Assembly: GCA_022813865.1 (NCBI GenBank) | Contig: JALDZX010000013.1 | Location: forward strand, 434,001-462,478 | Source: Xylographa opegraphella | Lineage: Eukaryota | DNA length: 28,478 bases | Direction: 5' to 3' | Shown: one piece after another, positions 3,858 through 26,712 of the stretch | Position numbering within the stretch: position 1 is the first letter of the stretch | How the letters are laid out: each line of letters begins with the position of its first letter | The notes under the pieces: model-generated | What the model was told of the DNA's origin: nothing | The model's input: the letters and a program-made list of their open reading frames with translations, nothing else | Database searches by the model: none | Made by a program: the position numbers and the translations under genes

Positions 3858-5928
3858 CTTCTCCAACGTCGCTTGTCAAGGATCAGCGTGCGGCTATCTC
3901 CTAGGTGGTCAGCTGTTGACAGGCGAATTGTTCGATCTGAGATAACTCGTATACTCGTATATCCGATAACTCGATCTACGAAGAGATACGAAGAAGGAAA
4001 TATGGCACGCGTGTGTTCAGCGAGTCAATGACTACGTCGAGTTTCGGCCCACTCAATGGTCCTGATAGGCCTATAACTAGAGCAGCACGAACCTGAAAGA
4101 TACTCAAGTACCATCCCCGTAACCCTCTCAACTACAGCCTTGAACTGTGACAAGAAAGCTTGGCTGTGTCCTAGATCAGACTCAGGTGTTCTGACCTATA
4201 CGTTAAGTAGTGACCACCCTAGTTGTGGTTGTTAGAATAAGGCCAACTGCATGTAAAATAGGTTGACCAGTCGTGCAGGTCCGGTTTCTGATTCAGCATG
4301 CATATTATTGATTCTTGGCTGGAAGTCCGAAGGTACCACCATCGTTTCAACAATACTTTTCTTTTCTTTCTCTGCCTATCTCTTTCCGTCCAACCATACC
4401 AATGTGCTATAATGGTTTCGTTGAGTGACTTCCAAAAGCGTTTGTTCTCAATTTCCAGTTTTTCAGTAGAGGCGCTGAATGAACTAGTCCTCGATGTATC
4501 CTCCTGAAAAATAAACATAATTCTGATTACTGATGTTGTTTCTCTTCTGTGGCTTATTTGATGGTGTTGCTACTAAAACTTACTTGTGAAGTCGGAAATC
4601 ACAAGTCTGGTCTCTCTACAGATCAGACAAGGCAAGGAGGTGGGCAGGGTAAGACTTGCATTCTTGGAAAAGTTCAAGCTAACTTCACAGGTAAGGCCAT
4701 TCGGGGCTGGTGAGATTGCTTTTAAGTGTTATATCACTGATCGGCGGTGGTGGTTCGTACTTGTTAAGCCGGGACCAGTGGCAGATCTAAGAATAGCGCA
4801 AATGAGTAGAGGACGGCAGGTAGGCGATATTACAATACCCAGCAAAGGGCGAGCATCAACGAAGATGGTGGCTACCCAAGTAACAAATTGACCGTTACGT
4901 GTTTCAGCTTGAAGTGTTGCAGATGGAAGTCGCTTGCAGAGCAGGATGAGTGGATATTGCATGGAAGCCAGACGAAAGCTGTAAGGTGTCGTGCAATCGA
5001 GGCGTCAACCAGGTATCTTGTGGAAAATCGACATCTACGATGCAAGCCGCCGGCAGATTTCACGAAATTACTTGTAAGGTAAATGCATCCCACCAGGAAA
5101 AAGGCCATATCAAATTACACAAGAGACAGCAGGTGAACCTCCTCTATTGTAGGCAAAGTTTCTCAATGGTTTTCAGCCGGAAATACGCATGCACCGTAGC
5201 TCCCGGTACTACCGAGCCAGCTCTGAAGGATATTGAACGGCTCTTGACTCATCGGCAACTGCAAGGTGGCTTTTGGATACATATTACTCTATTCGACAAG
5301 AGCCCTAAGGTATTCAATAAGCTCGCTTGTTTCTGTATCGCATTTGGCTGGTCGAAAGCTGGTCTGGTCAGGGGGCCGCCTGCACTGGTATACTCGATGT
5401 CAGTCAATCTTCTGGCATTTAGCCATAAACACAATACATAGCACGATAGTAACGCAAACGGAAGCCAAAGATTCGTGAATTTGAAGAATGGCGATCCGTA
5501 TACTCTTGTACTACTGATTCTGAGGGTTTCGAATATCGCAAACCCCTCATCTTCCCTTGTAGACAAGCTGTATATGTGCTTGCAGTCAAAGTCAGTCAGC
5601 ACACTGCTAACAAAGTCGAGCAGCAATCCTGGTAGTCATATTGTAGGAAAAGCCGCTGAGCTTGAGGGGCTGTGATAACTTGATAATGAATGGACGGTTC
5701 GATTACCCACCGAACCTGAAAGTTAACTCCCACATGCAATATGCTGCTACCACATTTACAACAATATCTAAGCCACAATAATATGATCAAATGTTTGGAT
5801 GAGACCATATAGCTCGACCCAAACGATACAAAGGTGTTGAAAGCCATCGTTGATTTCCAAAGATTGTTACATAATGATAGATATTAGAATCTGATTTACA
5901 CAGCTAATTCTTCGGTTGTGTAGTGTAG

Positions 5929-5981
5929 GTGGGTTATCGGCGTCCCAACGTTGTATTTCTCCCTGCTAACTGAGGCAAAAG
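5929..5981 (+). other. Spliceosomal-type intron 1 in the tRNA D-loop (between positions 15 and 16), 53 nt
   Basis: Donor GTGGGT, identical to the Ras intron 1 donor at 10416. Branch GCTAAC at 5965-5970, acceptor AAG at 5979-5981. Removal restores the A14-G15-A16-G18-G19 D-loop. Confidence 0.78.
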
Positions 5982-5999
5982 AGGTTATCACATCAGATT

Positions 6000-6050
6000 G
6001 TACGAGTTCGATTGACTGCCACTTTCGCTCAAAATACTAATTCCCCTCAG
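6000..6050 (+). other. Spliceosomal-type intron 2 in the tRNA anticodon loop (between positions 33 and 34), 51 nt
   Basis: Donor GTACGA, branch TACTAAT at 6035-6041, pyrimidine tract TCCCCT and acceptor CAG. Removal joins U33 to the UUG anticodon. Confidence 0.85.
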
Positions 6051-6054
6051 TTGA

Positions 6055-6061
6055 ATGAATC
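6055..6061 (+). other. Canonical 37/38 tRNA intron (ATGAATC, 7 nt)
   Basis: Lies one base 3' of the anticodon. Its antepenultimate A can pair with U32 (anticodon-intron pair). Confidence 0.75.
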
Positions 6062-6108
6062 TTCTGGATACCCCGGTTCGAGTCCGGGCACGACCTTAGT
6101 GCTATTAA

Positions 6109-6114
6109 TTTTTT
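6109..6114 (+). terminator. RNA polymerase III T6 terminator
   Basis: TTTTTT begins 13 nt after the tRNA discriminator base. Confidence 0.7.
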
Positions 6115-6271
6115 GGTGGATCTTTTGGCACTTTCCGCGAAAACAAGATGTGTGACGCTATCCTAAAGTGATTATTTATTAGTTCATCCTAAGATAGGAC
6201 TTAACTTACCTCTACGACCTCAGTTTCAATCCCGTCCATCACACCTAAGACTGCTGTTCGACGACGCAATA

Positions 6272-6956
6272 ATGGTGCGCAATGTCCAAAGCAAGCATAT
6301 CGCGTATCTAATACGTCTCGCAGGCCTCAGAGTCTCGCCTTTACACCTTCTCACCAGCAACAACTGCTGATTTACGCAAATTCCGCCTCGGGACATCTCG
6401 AGCCAAAGATCCTCAAGCGGTGATATGTACGTCTTGAGTAATCATGTTGATGTATGCCGAGCCAGGCCCCTTTCTTATATGTCAGCAAGCAAGTCATTCA
6501 AAGACTCAATGACGTTTTCTTGCAAGCATATGGCCCAGGCTGACTATTGTTCTTCAGATCAAATTGACAAGCACACTCTCGAGATCGCTCAAGCGGACGA
6601 TGTCACATACACGAATATGCAGGAGCTAGCAAACGAGCTTCCAGCTCATTCACCACGCTATGTATTACTTAGTTATCCGTTGACTCTGGTGTGTGCTATT
6701 TTACTTTGTTCTTCACGGATCAAGAAGATGGACTGAAAGAATGGCATATGGATCTAACATGGTGAAGACTTCCGGAAGATTATCAGTACCATACGTGATG
6801 GTATACTATTTACCAGTAACATGCAATGCAGAGCTGCGCATGCTGTACGCCGGAGCAAAGGAGCTGATGCGCAACACCGCGGAGGTCGGGAGGGTCATAG
6901 AAATGGCAGATCCGGAAGATCTAGAGGAGATTGAAAAGAGGCTCGGAGGGGAGTAG
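6272..6956 (+). CDS. Glia maturation factor (GMF/Aim7-like) ADF-homology protein, Arp2/3 regulator
   Basis: Exons 6272-6274 (ATG only), 6324-6426, 6558-6688 and 6768-6956. Product MASESRLYTFS...LRKFRLGTSRAKDPQAVIYQIDK...ELANELPAHSPRYVLLSYPLTL-TSGRLSVPYVMVYYLP...RMLYAGAKELMRN. Confidence 0.92.
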
Positions 6957-7482: not shown

Positions 7483-8592
7483 ATGTTTGCTAGATTGAGT
7501 CAATTGTCTCGTCACTTATCTCGACCACTTCCCAACTACGCCCATACCTCCGCTTCTGTATCACGTCCATCCTTTGCTGGAAGCATCATGACATCATCAT
7601 CAGAGGCTTCAGCGGAGCGGACGAGACGCATGATACACACGGCAGCAGCATTGATCATCGGAGACGAGATACTGAATGGTAAGGTGGGCAGTTGTCTCAT
7701 ATGTTGATGGCACTCCGAGCAAAGAGCTAACACGCTCCCAGACGGTTGACTCCAATTCGGCCTATTTTGCCAAGTTCTGTTTCTCTCTGGGCATCAATCT
7801 CAAACGAATAGAGGTGATTGCCGATGATGAGAGCGAGATCATCGAGGCGGTCAGACGCATGAGCGACAAGTACGACTTCGTCGTCACAAGCGGAGGGATA
7901 GGCCCCACGTATGCACGACACACATGCGGGTCACACAGGTTTCCTACGCTGACCAGCACCTTAGACATGATGACATTACATACGAATCCATCGCCAAGGC
8001 ATTCAACCTGAAACTAAAGTTACATGACGACGCCTTGCGGCGTATGAAAAGGCTGTCGAAGCCTCATCCATCTCAGCCGAACTTTTCGTATGATGTGCCT
8101 AGTCCTGCATTGGAGGCCAAGTTGCGGATGCTTCGACTACCCATCGATACGGAGAGAGAGGAGGAGAGCCAAGTCCTCTTTGTGGATGAGGGTCTCTGGG
8201 TGCCGATCAGTGTTGTGAATGGAAACATACACATCCTACCCGGTGTTCCTCGATTATTCACGCAACTACTGGATGGCCTGAAACCTCGCCTTGTACCGCG
8301 GCTGACAGATCCAGAAGGGAAGGGGATCTACCGAGTAATGATATCCACACCCATGGCAGAGAGTGCAGTGGCGGCGTATTTGACCAAACTGGCCGCCCAA
8401 GCCGAGCCCCATGGCATCAAGGTCGGAAGTTATCCGCGCTGGGGCAAGGGCAGGAACACGGTGACGCTCGTAGGGAGAGACAAGGCGTACATGGACAGCC
8501 TGATCCCAGAGGTCGAAAAGAATGTGCAGGGCATTCGAGTGGACAAGGAAGACGAGGCGGACCACCTTAACCCCGAAGACCTAGAAAGCTAG
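7483..8592 (+). CDS. Molybdopterin-binding (MoCF_biosynth/CinA-like) domain protein, similar to yeast YMR178W-type FAD diphosphatase
   Basis: Exons 7483-7683, 7742-7908 and 7965-8592. Motifs IIGDEILNGK-TVDSNS, VVTSGGIGPT-HDDITY, ILPGVP and KVGSYP. Confidence 0.88.
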
Positions 8593-19821: not shown

Positions 19822-22800
19822 ATGGCGGCTTCCTGGATTCCCTTCATATTCGCAACTCTTCAATCTCAGGTGAGCATCAACTCCCAGTTCTTCCACGACC
19901 CATATTACGAACCTATAAACTGTATATACATTTGAAACTGACCTCTGTTTCCTAGGCTTACAAACTCGGAAGATATGTTGCTGCCGGTTCGTGGTGTGAA
20001 ATAACCCGAGAAGAGAAGGTATTCATAAAATGTCCTACGTGTAATGATCATGACTAAGCCAAACAGATTGATTTCCAAAACTCGGATGGCCTCAATTTGC
20101 AGCCACTAAGAGAATACTTGCTTGTCGACATTGCTTTGGTAAATTTACGCAGTGCCATGTACGGCTCAGGTCGATTTCTTCTGCCTTCCGAATCACCGAC
20201 ACAAGCAATATCTACGTACTGTGCAATATACAATGAAGCAGCTGGATGGTTCGAGGTTTCGGTACGAGGAAACCTTCGAACACATCACGCCAAGCAAGAA
20301 CTTGGGGTATCAGAGGGTATACTACTCGAACCCAACGATACGGAGGATTGTTTTTTACCACATTCCCAAGCATACCCGCTGAACAACACTACCGCTGCAG
20401 GCGGTATGGAATATTCATCTTCTTCGGAGGCACAAGGCATCATTGGCACTCCGGAGATATCGAAACCTTCTGTGGTTCCTATCCCATCGAAAACTTCTGC
20501 AACGAAGGACAATGTAGCAGCTCCAAACACAGTGGCCCTTGTCCTTAAACATTCCACGGAGTCACTTTCTCTATCCTCTTGTATTTTGGACGCTCCTTCC
20601 GTCCCAGCTTATGCATACTACGAATCGAAATCTGGCTGTGACTGGGCTTCAATGCTAGATGATGAAGATGAGGAAGAGTCCTACGCTTCTCCATATTATC
20701 ATTCGCCCAGTGGAGAGGACTGCGCGATGATTGATGAAGAATACCGGTTCGAACACGATGACAGAGTGGTAACTCCTCCTGTTATGCTGCCTGATACGCC
20801 TGACCACGTTGCAATCGATGGATCTCGAACCTGTGTATCTACTGCTCCAATGGTCGAAACGTCTCCACGGCATACGAGTTCTGTCCTCGTCGCTGTAAAC
20901 AAGAAACATCCTTCGGCCACTAACATTGGTATCGAGTCCCCATTGCCAAACCTTCGGCAGTACATCCCGTAAGATACCACAGCAGCTTTTGAGAAGGTTC
21001 TGGCTGAGCTTGATCCGAAACATCGCCAAACTATGGCTGGTCGCCGATACGCTCAAGGCGTTGTTCACTGGCAGTGGATGTGCGAGGCCTCTGAACAACT
21101 ATTGGCGTCAGGGCGAGGCCGGCGAACTCGCTTGGAGGAATCCGATCGGTCAGTAGGCTGGTTTGGGGTGGACATTCATGAGAATAGATCTGCGAAAGTG
21201 TCTCATAGCCCCGCCTCTGATCCTCGAGTTCCAAAATCTCCGAAGCCCATCCATCACATCAACTTCGCTGGCCAGCCTGTACATGAGAGGACATACACTA
21301 GCCCAGCAGTATCATTTTGGGCAGCCACGAGTGAGGGTTTGAAGAATCGAATTGATCACAATGGGTCACTGCTCCGTTCGGTGATTTCTTCAAACGCCGG
21401 AAAAATGCTTGACCCGTTCATCGGTCCATCAGTTGCACCAGAACTGAAAGGTTCCAAGCTTAAGGAGTGGGTCACCGGAGCCGTCGATATTGTTTACCAG
21501 ACATATGGAACTTGGATAGAGGATGAGCTAGAACCCGATGATGATCGCCGAATTGCTGATGTGCCATGCTGTTTTGCTGGATGTGAGGATATAAACTGTC
21601 CTCCAATTCCATATATCATCGACCTCTCGGACGGAGACATTGTGGTGAATGATGATGGTCGTGTTCATCTGGGACAAAAAAGCCAAAGAGGAAATGTGTT
21701 CGACTGCGCTCGAAGCTTTGCAGGGTGACGAATATTAGCAGGATGAACGCAGAAGACCATACTCCTCTATCTACCTACCCCGAGAACTTCTACACAGTGC
21801 CATCAGATGCTCTCGATGCTCTGTTTATGGAGACTACTCCGGAGGTGTCTATCAATATGCCGGCGCTGATACTTGAGACGATCAGCAGAGACAAACTTGA
21901 GTACCAAGCTACTTCTTCGCCTATACCAAAGGAGACCGCATTCACGACTCAGCAAATGTCAGATCGACTATTCGCTTTATTTTCTGAATTCGACGAAGCC
22001 GATGACATGGCTTCAAGCGAAGCAGAGCCATTAAGTGCCGAAGATGAAAATATATCATCACTGTCTACAATATGGGAGCATACAGAAGATCAGGAGTACG
22101 AAATGTCGACGTGCTTTCGGATCGACCTGGACTTATCGATGAAAGCCACATTACAAATCCCTGTCACTAATTTCAAGGACGCCTCAGAGGATAGAGCTCC
22201 AGCTTTGTTCGGGTTAGATGATACTTTGCTCCTACAAGCTTCTGTAGTCATCTCCAGTGGTACGAGACAATGGAAGTCTTTCACTATACAGACGGAAATG
22301 TTCGATGCCGTGGTACAGGAAAATCCTGAAGTCGAATCAAGCTCACAGTCAAAGACATATTCAGATCCTTCATCCACATATTACTGACAACACTAATATG
22401 TCAAGTGATCGTATGCTACACCAAGCAATTATCTCTATACAGGATCTGGCTATCTTGAAGATGTTCAGCCTCTTCAGTTTTGACCGCGCGACTAATGAAA
22501 GCAATTTATCACTATCCTTCGCTACAAAAAAAAGACGTTTTATATGCTTATATTGCGATGCATGAACCAGGTGTTAGCTCCCGAGCTACATCACTGGTCA
22601 CAGATGCTTACAAGACAAAAACGGTTGATGCGATTACATGGCCACTCGAGGAATTGGGTTACTTTGCTATCAAGGCAAATGAGGAGGAAGCACCCATTAT
22701 TCAGAGCACTCCTATTATTATAACTAACGGGAAAATTCCGTTTCCTACCAACATCGAAGTACAGTCACCAGAATGGGCCGAAGAGTACTGGATAAACCAC

Positions 22801-23910
22801 GAATCCCATATCAATTTCGAGCACAATAGGAGTTCAAGTGGCTCTCTGACCGACTCTGATCTCGAAGGATTCAGTTCTTCCCTTTGTAGCACAGAGTCTA
22901 CTGGATCTGATGCCTCTAATGGCACAAATGAATCAGATGGATCAAAATTTCTCACCCCGGATTCGGTGCCGAACTCTTTCAACTCATTCAAACCACCGAG
23001 AAAATATATAAATGGCCAAGGATTTGATATAAATGATTTACTGGAAACGGATGACACAGTAACTGAATCTGTTTTTGATGCAGGGCAAGGTTCAACTGAG
23101 CGATTTGTACGACCTTGTCAACCAGTGTCTCATATGTCTCATTTTGTGCTAAATGGACTTCTTGTCGCAATGCACCACAAGTTCAAGGACGAGGATAAGT
23201 ACTTCAACTATCATTCTGACGATGAACTGAAGGTTCGAAATGGCGATATCGAGAATTTTTAGTCATCCGATTCTAATGTAAAATCACATAACGACGTATG
23301 TATGCACGGATCAATTAGTGATAGCTTGATCGATTCTGATCCTGTTACCACGACACCTCAAGCTACGAAGGTCTCGACTTATGCAGCACCTCAATTCGGG
23401 AGAAGCTCATTTATTGGCCATGTGATTATTTCCAGAACAAATGATGACGACCAGGCTGTGACAATGAAGGCAGCCGTGGAGGAAAAGCAAATCAAGAACG
23501 GTTCGACACCAGGAATTACTTTAATACGGTCTCCTACAAGCCAAGATTGGGCGAGTCTCAGCCAACCATCCATTTTAATGCTTCCAACTGAAGCACCATC
23601 AATAGGGACGAATGTTTTGGGTTCATCGACTGAAGAGACAAAATTGAGTCTGGGGGAGCGACGGGCAAGAGAACGGGATACTCCCGAAACCCCAGGAATA
23701 CGAACCACTGCTGGAAAAGCCGAAGGTCAAGGCTTCGTACGGTGTCCCAACATCCTGACATCGCGCCTTGAAGATGCAATCGTTGAACCCGTGCCTTTCG
23801 ACTGTGGTGTAGGCTTCTCCCTACCGGTCCCAAACCTCTCCGATTCTTTGCTATATGGTAGTATTGCAGGATATTTGGGGTATCGAATTTTTACTGCATT
23901 ACGACGGTGA
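19822..23910 (+). pseudogene. Large uncharacterised acidic/Ser-rich gene interrupted by in-frame stops and frameshifts
   Basis: Clean 5' exons 19822-19869 and 19956-20018, then 20067 onward (GT-AG introns with branch sites). In-frame TAA at 20970-20972 and TAG at 23260-23262, each followed by open frame. Frameshift near the A6 run at 21676-21681 and further frame changes at about 22380-22535. Confidence 0.72.
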
Positions 23911-24299: not shown

Positions 24300-26712
24300 C
24301 TAAGCCGCACGCCGCCAGCCGGCCGGTTTCGGCAGTAGGTTCCACCAGCACCACCGTGCGTTGAACCACCAATTAGCTATCTCCTCATCCGATAGGCCAT
24401 CGTCTCTCATTCTCTGTATGAAGAGCTGACCCCTCTTCTCCAACCGTTCCAGGCCTGCTGCCCTGTGGGGTGCTGTGTGTTCGACTACTGTTCCTCTGTT
24501 GACACCTTGGAATAATTCGTCAGGAGATGCTGTCCAACCTCGCCCCAGAAGACCAGAACCGTTCGAATTGTCTCTCAAATTTTGCCGTATTTGTGAAAAG
24601 CTGAGTTTCGCCTGAGTCTCATCCAGATTCGGGTCATAGAATCCTCCTTCATTCCCAGGACGCCTTCCCTCGCGGCCCCTTGGTAGAAACAGTTTGAAGT
24701 CGTCCACACTCTGTTGACCCTTCTCATCCAGAACACCAGAGATACCTCGACTTTCTTCCGGCAGGCCGACAGAGTATGTGAGATCGTGCATGGGACATGT
24801 ACAAGTTAGGCCTTTGTACGTTCTATTGGCTGTATGGTCTGACAATATTGCTTTAGAGCCGTTGGGAATAATTCCGTCGGTTAAGGTGGAGCCCCAAGGA
24901 TCATCGAAATGGGGGCTCAAGTCCAGCAACCTTACATGCGCTTTCCCATCCACTCTAGAAACTCCGGACATCACGATCTGAACACCACTCTGTACGTCAA
25001 TGGCATGTTTGAGGCCAGATCCGGAGCGTTCAATATTGCTCTCGATGTCAAGGTCGGAATTGACCTTGGGGTTAAGGGCAAGTCCTCCGTCGGTATAATC
25101 ATTAGAAGTCCAGATAGATTGATGGAGTTGACGAAGAGGACTTTCCTTGTGCAATCCGCCGAGACCCAGAGGCACTGTGGATATCCTTATCTGCCGGAGA
25201 GCTTGAAGCTTGGTGTGCCGAAGCGAGTCACCAGGTTTTACTTTGTATAGGAAAAGTTCCGCCGGACTTGATGGACACCAAGGATCCACCCAACTGATGA
25301 CCATGCGGAATTTCTGGGGACACCATTGTTTACTAGCGTAGCAAACTGAAAGATTCCGGAACACCATGCGTTTCTTTGGGGCGAAGATCCGGATCGTGGG
25401 ATTCACAGTGTAGGACCGATTTCCCGGGATAGAATCCACACCTCGCACACAGCGTACCATGACAAGGTGTAATTGCTGAGTCGCGATATGTTTCGCGACT
25501 ATGAGCCTTTCAGAGCATCTACAGGGCTGGTCAGTTGAGTATAGCTGATTCATATCAGTGCCTGTGAGAGCCTAGATCAATAATCACACTACTTACCTCA
25601 ATTGTATCCATTTCCCTCAAGAGTACCCATTTACCCGTGTTGGGATCGTTGATAACCCGAGCTCCTGGATCGTCTTGTTTGACAGCAGCCAAGAGTAGGC
25701 TGGTGCCTGACTCGATTTTACTTTGTATAACATCACGAGCTCCGATTGCTTCTATGTGCTCTACACATTGTTCTGTATCTGTGATGGTCTCCCCTTTGAA
25801 TCCGATGCTATCGTCAGCAACTGAAGCTAAGTGGGTATATTCGACCGGCACAACGATCAGCTTCAAGAAAGACTCGGTGTTTGCAAATTGCGCGCGTGGT
25901 TCGACTCTACAGCCTCGAAGCCAAGTATGGCAGGGGGACCTCAGGAGTATTGGGTGATTGAACGAGCGGCTCAATACATCGTGTCCTAGGCCAACGACTT
26001 CGAGCTCGTTCACATACTCTGGACAGCTCACACTTCCGAGATGGCTAGGCCGTCCGCAAGAGTTGAGAGAGTAGAATACTATTCTTTTCTCCCCTTCGGT
26101 CATAGCGATATCGCCCCGGAGGTCCGGAAAAGGCTTGACGAGAAGTATCACGACCCGGACCGGGTTCCAGTATGACATCCATTCGATCGTCTGTTTCCGT
26201 GGTAACTGACTTGACGACAATCCGAACCCAACGTCCACCGCACGAAAATTCTGCTTCCATGAGCGATCGTCATCCAGATGGTGTAGTACCTTCGCCGCTT
26301 TCTGAAATTCCACGTTTAAGCGTTGCAGATCAGAGGTTTCCCTGATGCATTTGTCAAGTCGTGATTGGCGTGGGTTGCATTGACTGTCAGCGGAAAGTAA
26401 GACCGATTGCAAGAGTCCGACGTTCGTCGTAATACAGTTCCACCAGGTCTTACAGGTACATCGAGCGGCGTCGAGATCCATAATGCCAAGGTTTGCAAGC
26501 ATTCGATCTCTGATTTCCTTAGGTAGAGCCGTTACGCGGTCACTCGAACTTCTATCGGCCTGAGATTCGCCAACTTGATCCAAGTATGCATGCGGCGATG
26601 AGGGGTGTGGCTCATGAAAATCAAAACCTTCACCAGGAGGAGGGATGTCATAGTAATACTGTCGACCCCTCTCACCTCCTTGGGGAATGACACGAAAGCT
26701 TCGGTGTGGCAT
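24300..26712 (-). CDS. F-box domain protein (~786 aa)
   Basis: ORFs 25555-26712 and 24300-25553 are joined in frame by intron 25596..25545 (GTAAGT...CTGAT...CAG). F-box-like motif VTALPKEIRDRMLANLGIMDLDAARCTCKTWWNCI. Confidence 0.8.

Follow-up and report, generated by a model that had tools for sequence, protein, structure and literature searches.

The closest described counterparts of the locus considered here are genes for structural RNAs that carry introns of the mRNA type, and of these the U6 snRNA genes come first. Their introns were reportedly the subject of papers by Tani and Ohshima (1989, 1991), Frendewey et al. (1990) and Canzler et al. (2016), and the 1990 work of Frendewey et al. 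is said to have drawn attention to a B box in the U6 intron of S. pombe. According to PMC5855946, U6 snRNA, a Pol III transcript, has mRNA-type introns in S. pombe and other fungi, their presence varying by species, and the same paper describes a match to the B box inside the S. pombe intron. Spliceosomal introns also occur in the U1, U2 and U5 snRNAs and the U3 snoRNA of fungi, with a distribution that differs from one close relative to the next and even among paralogues (PMC5832005), and the rDNA of ascomycetes carries them as well (Bhattacharya et al. 2000, as cited in PMC5855946 and PMC6652019). For tRNA genes, PMC4090602 describes non-canonical introns of the endonuclease type in Cyanidioschyzon merolae, in the nucleomorphs of cryptophytes and chlorarachniophytes and in archaea, and gives 6–133 nt as the range of canonical eukaryotic tRNA introns. 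In a 2025 paper (PMC12530127), spliceosomal introns, found in Pol II transcripts, and tRNA introns, removed by an endonuclease, are introduced as unrelated classes. A literature search that did not extend to subscription journals turned up nothing on spliceosomal introns within tRNA genes.

The stretch of DNA analysed here (28,478 nt in all, and referred to below as the window) is eukaryotic, and its protein genes are interrupted by short introns. The host is presumably a fungus, probably a filamentous ascomycete, and the contigs of the source run amount to about 30.6 Mb. Pfam identifies among these genes a TCP-1 chaperonin subunit, a class II prolyl-tRNA synthetase (ProRS), an FAD synthase and a member of the cofilin/ADF-H family; for two long multi-exon genes, at 20097–23910 (+) and 24300–26712 (−), there was no Pfam match in the pieces scanned. 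Between the ProRS gene and the cofilin-like gene, at 5914–6096 on the forward strand, lies a tRNA gene that has a B box, is followed by a T6 terminator and is split by two inserts of mRNA-type appearance. On balance we favour the view, judging by its letters, that this is a nuclear tRNA-Gln(UUG) gene with two spliceosomal-type introns and a further 7-nt piece, whose product would be matured by the full splicing route; the narrower proposition, that the inserts are genuine interruptions, of the intron type, in a live tRNA gene, can be held a good deal more firmly, as probable. The individual parts are as follows.

5914–5928 (+): tRNA exon 1, with the 5' strand of the acceptor stem GGTTGTG (5914–5920), U8 and A9, the D-stem strand GTGT, and A14 and G15, as placed in the ARAGORN cloverleaf after removal of the inserts
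5921–5932 (+): A-box-like 12-mer TAGTGTAGGTGG of the unspliced DNA, a putative promoter element, its first 8 nt in exon 1 and its last 4 (GTGG) in the donor of intron 1
5929–5981 (+): intron 1, 53 nt, GTGGGT ... TGCTAAC ... AAG, in the D-loop at tRNA position 15/16
5932–5938 (+): first copy of the repeat GGTTATC, at positions +4 to +10 of intron 1
5964–5970 (+): putative branch site TGCTAAC of intron 1, assigned by motif, its branch A (5969) lying 12 nt from the 3' end
5982–5999 (+): tRNA exon 2, positions 16–33, with AGGTTA, the D-stem strand TCAC, A26, the anticodon-stem strand TCAGA, and U32 and U33
5983–5989 (+): second copy of GGTTATC, inside exon 2, corresponding to G18 G19 U20 U20a A21 U22 C23
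6000–6050 (+): intron 2, 51 nt, GTACGA ... TACTAAT ... CAG, between U33 and U34, and with a putative branch A, 6040, that precedes the end by 10 nt
6051–6054 (+): anticodon TTG and A37, giving tRNA-Gln(ttg) in ARAGORN once three inserts are removed
6055–6061 (+): seven extra nucleotides ATGAATC (alternative register 6056–6062) at the canonical 37/38 site, a putative mini-intron
6062–6096 (+): 3' exon, with U38, the anticodon-stem strand TCTGG, the variable loop ATAC, the T arm CCCGG TTCGAGT CCGGG, the acceptor strand CACGACC and the discriminator T
6075–6085 (+): B box GGTTCGAGTCC, the sole zero-mismatch match among 12 matches in the window
6109–6114 (+): run of six T, resembling a Pol III terminator, 13 nt past the end of the tRNA

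The A and B boxes are taken here in the sense of their usual consensus motifs, the A box spanning tRNA positions 8–19. With an A-box pattern at 5921–5932, a perfect B box at 6075–6085 and T6 at 6109–6114, the locus would appear to have the complete layout of a type-2 Pol III gene, and nowhere in the unspliced DNA of 5914–6096 is there a run of T longer than TTT. One of the one-mismatch matches to the B box belongs to a hairpin about 200 nt upstream of the tRNA gene (5696–5716), in which GGTTCG and CGAACC enclose a 9-nt loop and which forms no part of a tRNA.

Run in its default mode on the unspliced window, ARAGORN finds no tRNA. When 5929–5981, 6000–6050 and seven further nucleotides are removed, it returns a regular tRNA-Gln(ttg) of 72 nt, with an acceptor stem of 7 bp, anticodon and T stems of 5 bp each, U33, A37 and the T-loop TTCGAGT. 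The anticodon loop then reads TTTTGAT or TTTTGAA, depending on which register of the extra seven (6055–6061 or 6056–6062) is taken out, and the MFE fold of the 72-nt product retains the acceptor, D, anticodon and T helices. What identifies the product as tRNA-Gln(UUG), once the three inserts are out, is the cloverleaf, the anticodon UUG, U33 and a purine at 37; beyond the anticodon, the assignment rests on the type of D arm, the 4-nt variable loop and U73, which we take to be those of eukaryotic tRNA-Gln. Three other calls can be obtained from ARAGORN or from partial removal of the inserts, and each was rejected: tRNA-Gly(ccc) with a 101-nt “intron”, returned under the intron option, is a forced call and an artefact, while two are unnatural: taking out intron 1 alone leads to tRNA-Ile(aat), with C37 and an intron of 58 nt at 33/34, and taking out introns 1 and 2 leads to a “Phe(gaa)” of 79 nt that has U37 and a variable loop 9 nt long. 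To our knowledge there is no described precedent for three interruptions in a tRNA of 72 nt, for an internal exon of 18 nt, or for a 4-nt piece that holds the anticodon.

It must be said that the removal of the seven nucleotides is an ad hoc addition to this scheme, required in order to arrive at a normal anticodon loop. Most simply, and we hold this view loosely, they may be a very short tRNA intron of the endonuclease type, since they lie at position 37/38, their length falls within the range recorded for such introns, and in the register 6055–6061 U32 can pair with the A three nucleotides before the 3' cut, presumably the arrangement expected under the anticodon–intron pair rule. Alternatively, the letters of 6051–6067 (TTGAATGAATCTTCTGG) can be read as two adjacent tandem micro-duplications, TGAA TGAA and TCT TCT. 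The same letters also permit a competing helix, AGATT/AATCT.

The two longer inserts have the form of mRNA introns. Both start with GT and end with AG, both have a branch-like motif (CTAAC in intron 1, CTAAT in intron 2) 10–12 nt from the end, and in both the donor and 3' end agree with the U2-type pattern of a GTRNGN-type donor combined with a 3' AG (GTGGGT..AAG and GTACGA..CAG respectively). Such combinations are uncommon in this DNA. Taking both strands of the window together, 15 of the 56,852 possible 53-mers start with GT, end with AG and have CTRAY 8–20 nt from the end, and if a GTRNGH donor is also demanded the number falls to 2 of 56,852, intron 1 among them; for 51-mers the corresponding figures are 17 of 56,856 and, with the GTRNGH donor, 3 of 56,856, intron 2 among them.

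In their lengths and signals the inserts also resemble the mRNA introns of the host, as represented by nine local candidates of 50–91 nt with CTRAY 6–15 nt from the end, which were hand-picked for consensus-like donors from a list of joins between open reading frames, two being backed by continuity of a Pfam domain and seven by reading frame alone. Thus the protein-gene intron at 7909–7964 (56 nt; GTATGC, GCTGAC, TAG) parts positions 15–68 of the MoCF_biosynth profile from positions 70–142, and that at 6689–6767 (79 nt; GTGTGT, TCTAAC, AAG) parts positions 24–61 of Cofilin_ADF from positions 67–119 and has the same AAG end as intron 1. A candidate at 1468–1535 on the minus strand opens with GTACGA, as does intron 2, and one at 7684–7741 opens with GTGGGC, sharing GTGG with intron 1.

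Other kinds of intron were considered and set aside. Rfam gave no family at gathering score anywhere in the window, and within 5800–6200 just three matches at chance level (E 1.9–7.8), with no group I or group II intron at E up to 10; a group I or group II intron was rejected on this account and because 51–53 nt is too short for a catalytic core. Nor can introns 1 and 2 be canonical tRNA introns of the endonuclease type, since they lie at 15/16 and 33/34 rather than 37/38, where the sole piece present is the 7 nt of 6055–6061. A bulge-helix-bulge, in which two 3-nt bulges frame a helix of 4 bp, appears at neither junction in MFE or constrained folds of 5914–6096. Given the combination of GT, branch motif and AG, with no bulge-helix-bulge and no Rfam family, the inserts are in form ordinary spliceosomal introns of their host, and we infer that both would be removed by splicing. 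Similarity between intron 1 and intron 2, or between either and its flanks, is not above that of shuffled sequences, so that the idea of a shared intron family is not supported. As for other copies, a search of the source run (98,362 contigs) for matches to 5800–6200 at 80% likeness returned the source contig and no other, which does not in itself prove that the gene or intron 1 has no second copy.

Two further observations on the inserts may be recorded at this point. There is a perfect 8-nt inverted repeat, AACTGAGG at 5968–5975 and CCTCAGTT at 6045–6052, the only one reported in 5900–6115, which would pair the branch region of intron 1 (A 5969 included) with CAG|TT, the 3' splice site of intron 2, and which also appears as a helix in the MFE fold; it could set the order of splicing, or it could be chance. 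In addition, intron 2 breaks up (5998–5999 / 6051–6052) what would be a TTTT run, U32–U35, in an intron-free tRNA-Gln(UUG), an interruption that, as pure speculation, could be a side benefit of intron 2 where T4 weakens elongation by Pol III.

The most informative comparison comes from a second organism, referred to here as organism B. A contig of 194 nt from that organism (run X2, from the same study as the source, labelled “DNA?”, depth 2.8) was aligned with the locus at 80% likeness. It matches 5906–5926 with 1 of 21 letters differing and then jumps directly to 5980–6005, where none differs. Position 5926 is in this way joined to 5980 and 53 nt are skipped; if the joint is shifted two places to the right it reads GT..AG, in agreement with the borders 5929–5981 that the preliminary description had given for intron 1. 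Taking exon and leader letters together, 46 of 47 match, and exon 2 is identical. The D-loop of the contig is AGAGGTTA, which is what was predicted for the spliced product and is not what deletion of a 51-nt repeat unit would produce. Two donor-like sites, GTAGGT starting at 5925 and GTGGGT starting at 5929, overlap in the window at this point with an offset of 4 nt, and use of the upstream one would cost part of the D-stem; the register beginning at 5929 (not 5925) is the one that agrees with the intron-free gene of organism B.

Beyond exon 2 the contig keeps the donor of intron 2 (GTACGA, 6 nt) and then diverges, stopping 72 nt into its own intron 2, before the anticodon, which leaves the 3' half of the gene outside the comparison. 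For the 30 letters that follow GTACGA, 1415 of 2000 shuffles score as high against the window as the real sequence, and for the 30 letters upstream of 5906 the figure is 1404 of 2000. The contig does share the leader at 5906–5913 (AATTCTTC), the 8 nt before the 5' end of the tRNA, although further upstream it cannot be aligned; this stretch may be a conserved leader or an element of the start site.

On this evidence, which is that of one low-depth contig, organism B would seem to have a homologous gene lacking exactly intron 1, and the borders of intron 1 are confirmed by it. The retention of exon letters and GTACGA amid diverged surroundings speaks for a functional gene whose donor also functions, and for an intron 2 that is either the older of the two or the less readily lost. 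Intron 1 is found here but is missing from a relative, so that its gain or loss was that of an exact GT..AG unit. Searches elsewhere were negative: in run X3 no contig matched 5800–6200; the exon 2 pattern occurs at two loci among metagenome contigs, both chance matches in unrelated sequence, and at none among viral or genome contigs; a 25-mer of the T arm and acceptor is found in no genome contig and no viral contig; and scans of these collections (metagenome, viral and genome contigs) revealed no orthologous copy of intron 1.

Lying between positions 15 and 16, intron 1 splits the A box, and the preliminary description had drawn attention to the fact that the unspliced DNA still fits the pattern TRGYNNARNNGG. 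This is correct, as are the sequences on which it was based: TAGTGTAGGTGG reads across 5921–5932, its sole occurrence in the window, intron 1 starts GTGGGTTATC, and exon 2 (from 5982) starts AGGTTATC. It had further proposed that the splice donor doubles as the 3' half of the internal promoter. Here the outcome is more mixed, in that the GG of the donor does keep the A-box match, but roughly one local intron in ten would do so by chance. The pattern TRGYNNARNNGG is a loose one: 5.4 matches would be expected in the window, and 5 occur. Of its 12 positions 8 come from exon 1 and the intron adds only GG at +3/+4, which would be found in 1/16 of random sequences and is found, among the nine local introns, in the one at 7684 (GTGGGC), so that it is expected by chance in some 6–11% of cases. 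Where organism B has TAGTGTAGAGG as its A box, the window DNA has TAGTGTAG|GTGG, the donor GG standing where G18 G19 would be, one position further along. The distance from A box to B box is about 142 nt here, as against about 33 in an intron-free tRNA gene; TFIIIC tolerates stretching of this kind.

These considerations permit conclusions of rather different strength. Restoration of the A-box G residues by the donor GTGG may have been a condition for toleration of the intron, and may equally be a one-in-ten coincidence. It is plausible that the need for an A box acts as a filter on which introns survive at this site, while selection for a dual donor/promoter code is unproven. That the donor matters for the A box at all we regard as possible but doubtful.

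The two copies of GGTTATC noted earlier at 5932–5938 and 5983–5989 are indeed there, 51 nt apart, and are the only forward-strand copies in the 28,478 nt of the window. That a 7-mer should recur is in itself nothing rare: an unrelated pair, CTAATTC at 5904–5910 and 6037–6043, falls within the same 216 nt. One copy of the latter lies just upstream of the tRNA and the other over the branch motif of intron 2, and the pair serves as a chance-level control for GGTTATC. What makes GGTTATC unusual is its position, both copies lying 1–3 nt after a splice junction. In a Monte Carlo calculation that set 200,000 random 15-mers starting with GT against the opening 15 nt of exon 2, the probability of a shared word of at least 7 nt was 0.005, and in the nine local protein-gene introns only 2–4 nt are shared at the corresponding place. 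Intron 1 reads GGGTTATC from +3 to +10.

The leading rival to the account that we prefer takes up both observations, and supposes that the donor of intron 1 was selected as the 3' half of the A box and that a local duplication following an exonic AG gave rise to the intron. We consider this unlikely, though more deserving of attention than the rivals that follow. In its favour are the survival of TAGTGTAGGTGG in the unspliced DNA, the 7-nt repeat directly after both junctions (at a probability of about 0.005, against only 2–4 nt in the nine local introns), and the precedent set by the B box of the S. pombe U6 intron for a Pol III element borne on an intron. Its first half is weakened by the occurrence of GG at +3/+4 in one of nine local introns, and also by the extent of the repeat: the A box ends at G19, while the repeat runs on through TTATC, 5 nt past that end, so that over this part the promoter idea leaves the repeat unexplained.

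Its second half, the origin by local duplication suggested in the preliminary description, fares worse and was not sustained. When the whole of intron 1 is locally aligned with the 69 nt downstream, 1209 of 2000 shuffles score as high, and beyond the 7 nt there is no similarity to the downstream sequence (1604 of 2000 shuffles as high). A tandem duplication would leave intron 1 resembling the 51 nt downstream of it, and since it does not, such an event is not supported; a simple target-site duplication predicts an empty site differing by 51 nt, which does not fit the actual difference of 53 nt at GT..AG. As regards an introner or transposon-derived intron, for which many near-identical genomic copies and a target-site duplication would be expected, a 7-nt direct repeat is present, the intron-free homologue differs by 53 nt and not 51, and the search of the source run described above returned only the source contig. 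Either reverse splicing followed by copying back into DNA, or cDNA-mediated loss in organism B, would give the exact GT..AG difference that is seen, and the empty site TAG|A has what we take to be a resemblance to a proto-splice site. As for the repeat, it might be filler templated during repair of a break, it might reflect some constraint on DNA or RNA, or it might be chance at the 0.5% level.

A second rival, which we judge improbable, is that this is a dead or dying tRNA gene containing junk insertions, in which the splice-like signals are irrelevant and from which no functional tRNA is made. It draws on the presence of as many as three interruptions, on the possibility that the 7 extra nucleotides are simply the TGAA TGAA and TCT TCT micro-duplications, and on the failure of both ARAGORN in default mode and Rfam to match a tRNA in the unspliced DNA. 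Against it, all four helices and the invariant loop bases are intact once the inserts are removed, and both inserts fit a pattern seen only about 3–5 times per 100,000 windows. Its terminator is intact and it lacks any internal T4 run, and the gene of organism B keeps its 46 of 47 exon letters and GTACGA while the flanks and the intron interior have diverged.

Still less probable, in our view, is excision of the inserts without the spliceosome, whether by the tRNA endonuclease cutting at sites other than the canonical one, as in C. merolae and in nucleomorphs, or by some unknown activity. Eukaryotic tRNA genes are known in which non-canonical introns lie in the D arm or the anticodon loop and are excised, as described in PMC4090602. 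Against their relevance here stand the folds of the precursor, in which neither junction has a bulge-helix-bulge; the GT, the branch motif at 10–12 nt and the AG, which would be superfluous for an endonuclease and are very unlikely to have come together by chance; and the conservation in organism B of the donor hexamer of intron 2. The weakest proposal is that the tRNA derives from a Pol II transcript, for instance one that extends into the cofilin/GMF-like gene, which begins about 300 nt further downstream, with release by RNase P and RNase Z and with no role for the A box, and although spliceosomal signals do normally act on Pol II transcripts and that gene lies on the same strand (exons ~6530–6953), we give it very little weight, as T6 13 nt past the end of the tRNA, the perfect B box and the absence of an internal T4 fit a self-standing Pol III gene.

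The explanation that we prefer, then, is of a live tRNA-Gln(UUG) gene with spliceosomal-type introns. The host would be a eukaryote with short introns of the fungal type, and the gene a type-2 Pol III gene. Its primary transcript would be spliced twice by the spliceosome, in the manner of the U6 snRNA that fission yeast makes with Pol III, after which the tRNA splicing endonuclease would remove the 7-nt piece to leave the 72-nt tRNA-Gln. A bolder form of this explanation, in which a nuclear tRNA could not mature without the spliceosome and the tRNA endonuclease together, and in which intron 1, recently gained or lost, persists only because its donor GTGG re-creates G18 G19 of the A box, we think unlikely to be right in all its parts.

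If the splicing is real, a tRNA gene with working introns of the mRNA type would blur the divide between spliceosomal and tRNA introns, and the precedent of U6 would be extended to the largest family of Pol III genes. There is also a practical implication, in that standard tRNA finders would pass over such genes, as ARAGORN in default mode and Rfam both did here: some fungal tRNA genes that appear to be “missing” may be hidden in this way. The presence of intron 1 in one organism and its absence from the other provide a small and exactly bounded case of a spliceosomal intron entering or leaving a structural RNA, and its overlap with the A box offers a simple mutational test of whether the needs of a promoter limit where introns can settle.

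When this locus is set beside the systems described at the outset, each of them shares something with it. As in the tRNA genes of C. merolae, nucleomorphs and archaea, there are several introns in one gene, placed in the D arm and at odd sites in the anticodon loop; those introns, however, depend on a bulge-helix-bulge or are 3–24 nt in length and have no GT, branch and AG, whereas here there is no bulge-helix-bulge and the signals are spliceosomal. The introns of fungal snRNA, U3 and rDNA genes are alike in having normal splice signals inside a gene for a structural RNA, but fungal U3 and U1, U2 and U5 are Pol II genes and rDNA is a Pol I gene, unlike the tRNA gene considered here.

It is with the U6 genes that the comparison can be taken furthest. 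There are differences, in that the host gene here is a tRNA gene, it has two introns and a 7-nt piece, the promoter element concerned is an A box that overlaps the donor itself, and the splicing is something that we infer. Moreover, a tRNA, unlike U6, does not lie within the spliceosome's active site, so that the explanation of reverse splicing into a nearby RNA is less natural in this case. In both, nevertheless, a small Pol III gene for a structural RNA has short GT..AG introns that are present or absent between related species, and the B box in the U6 intron of S. pombe is the closest parallel to a donor doubling as part of an A box.
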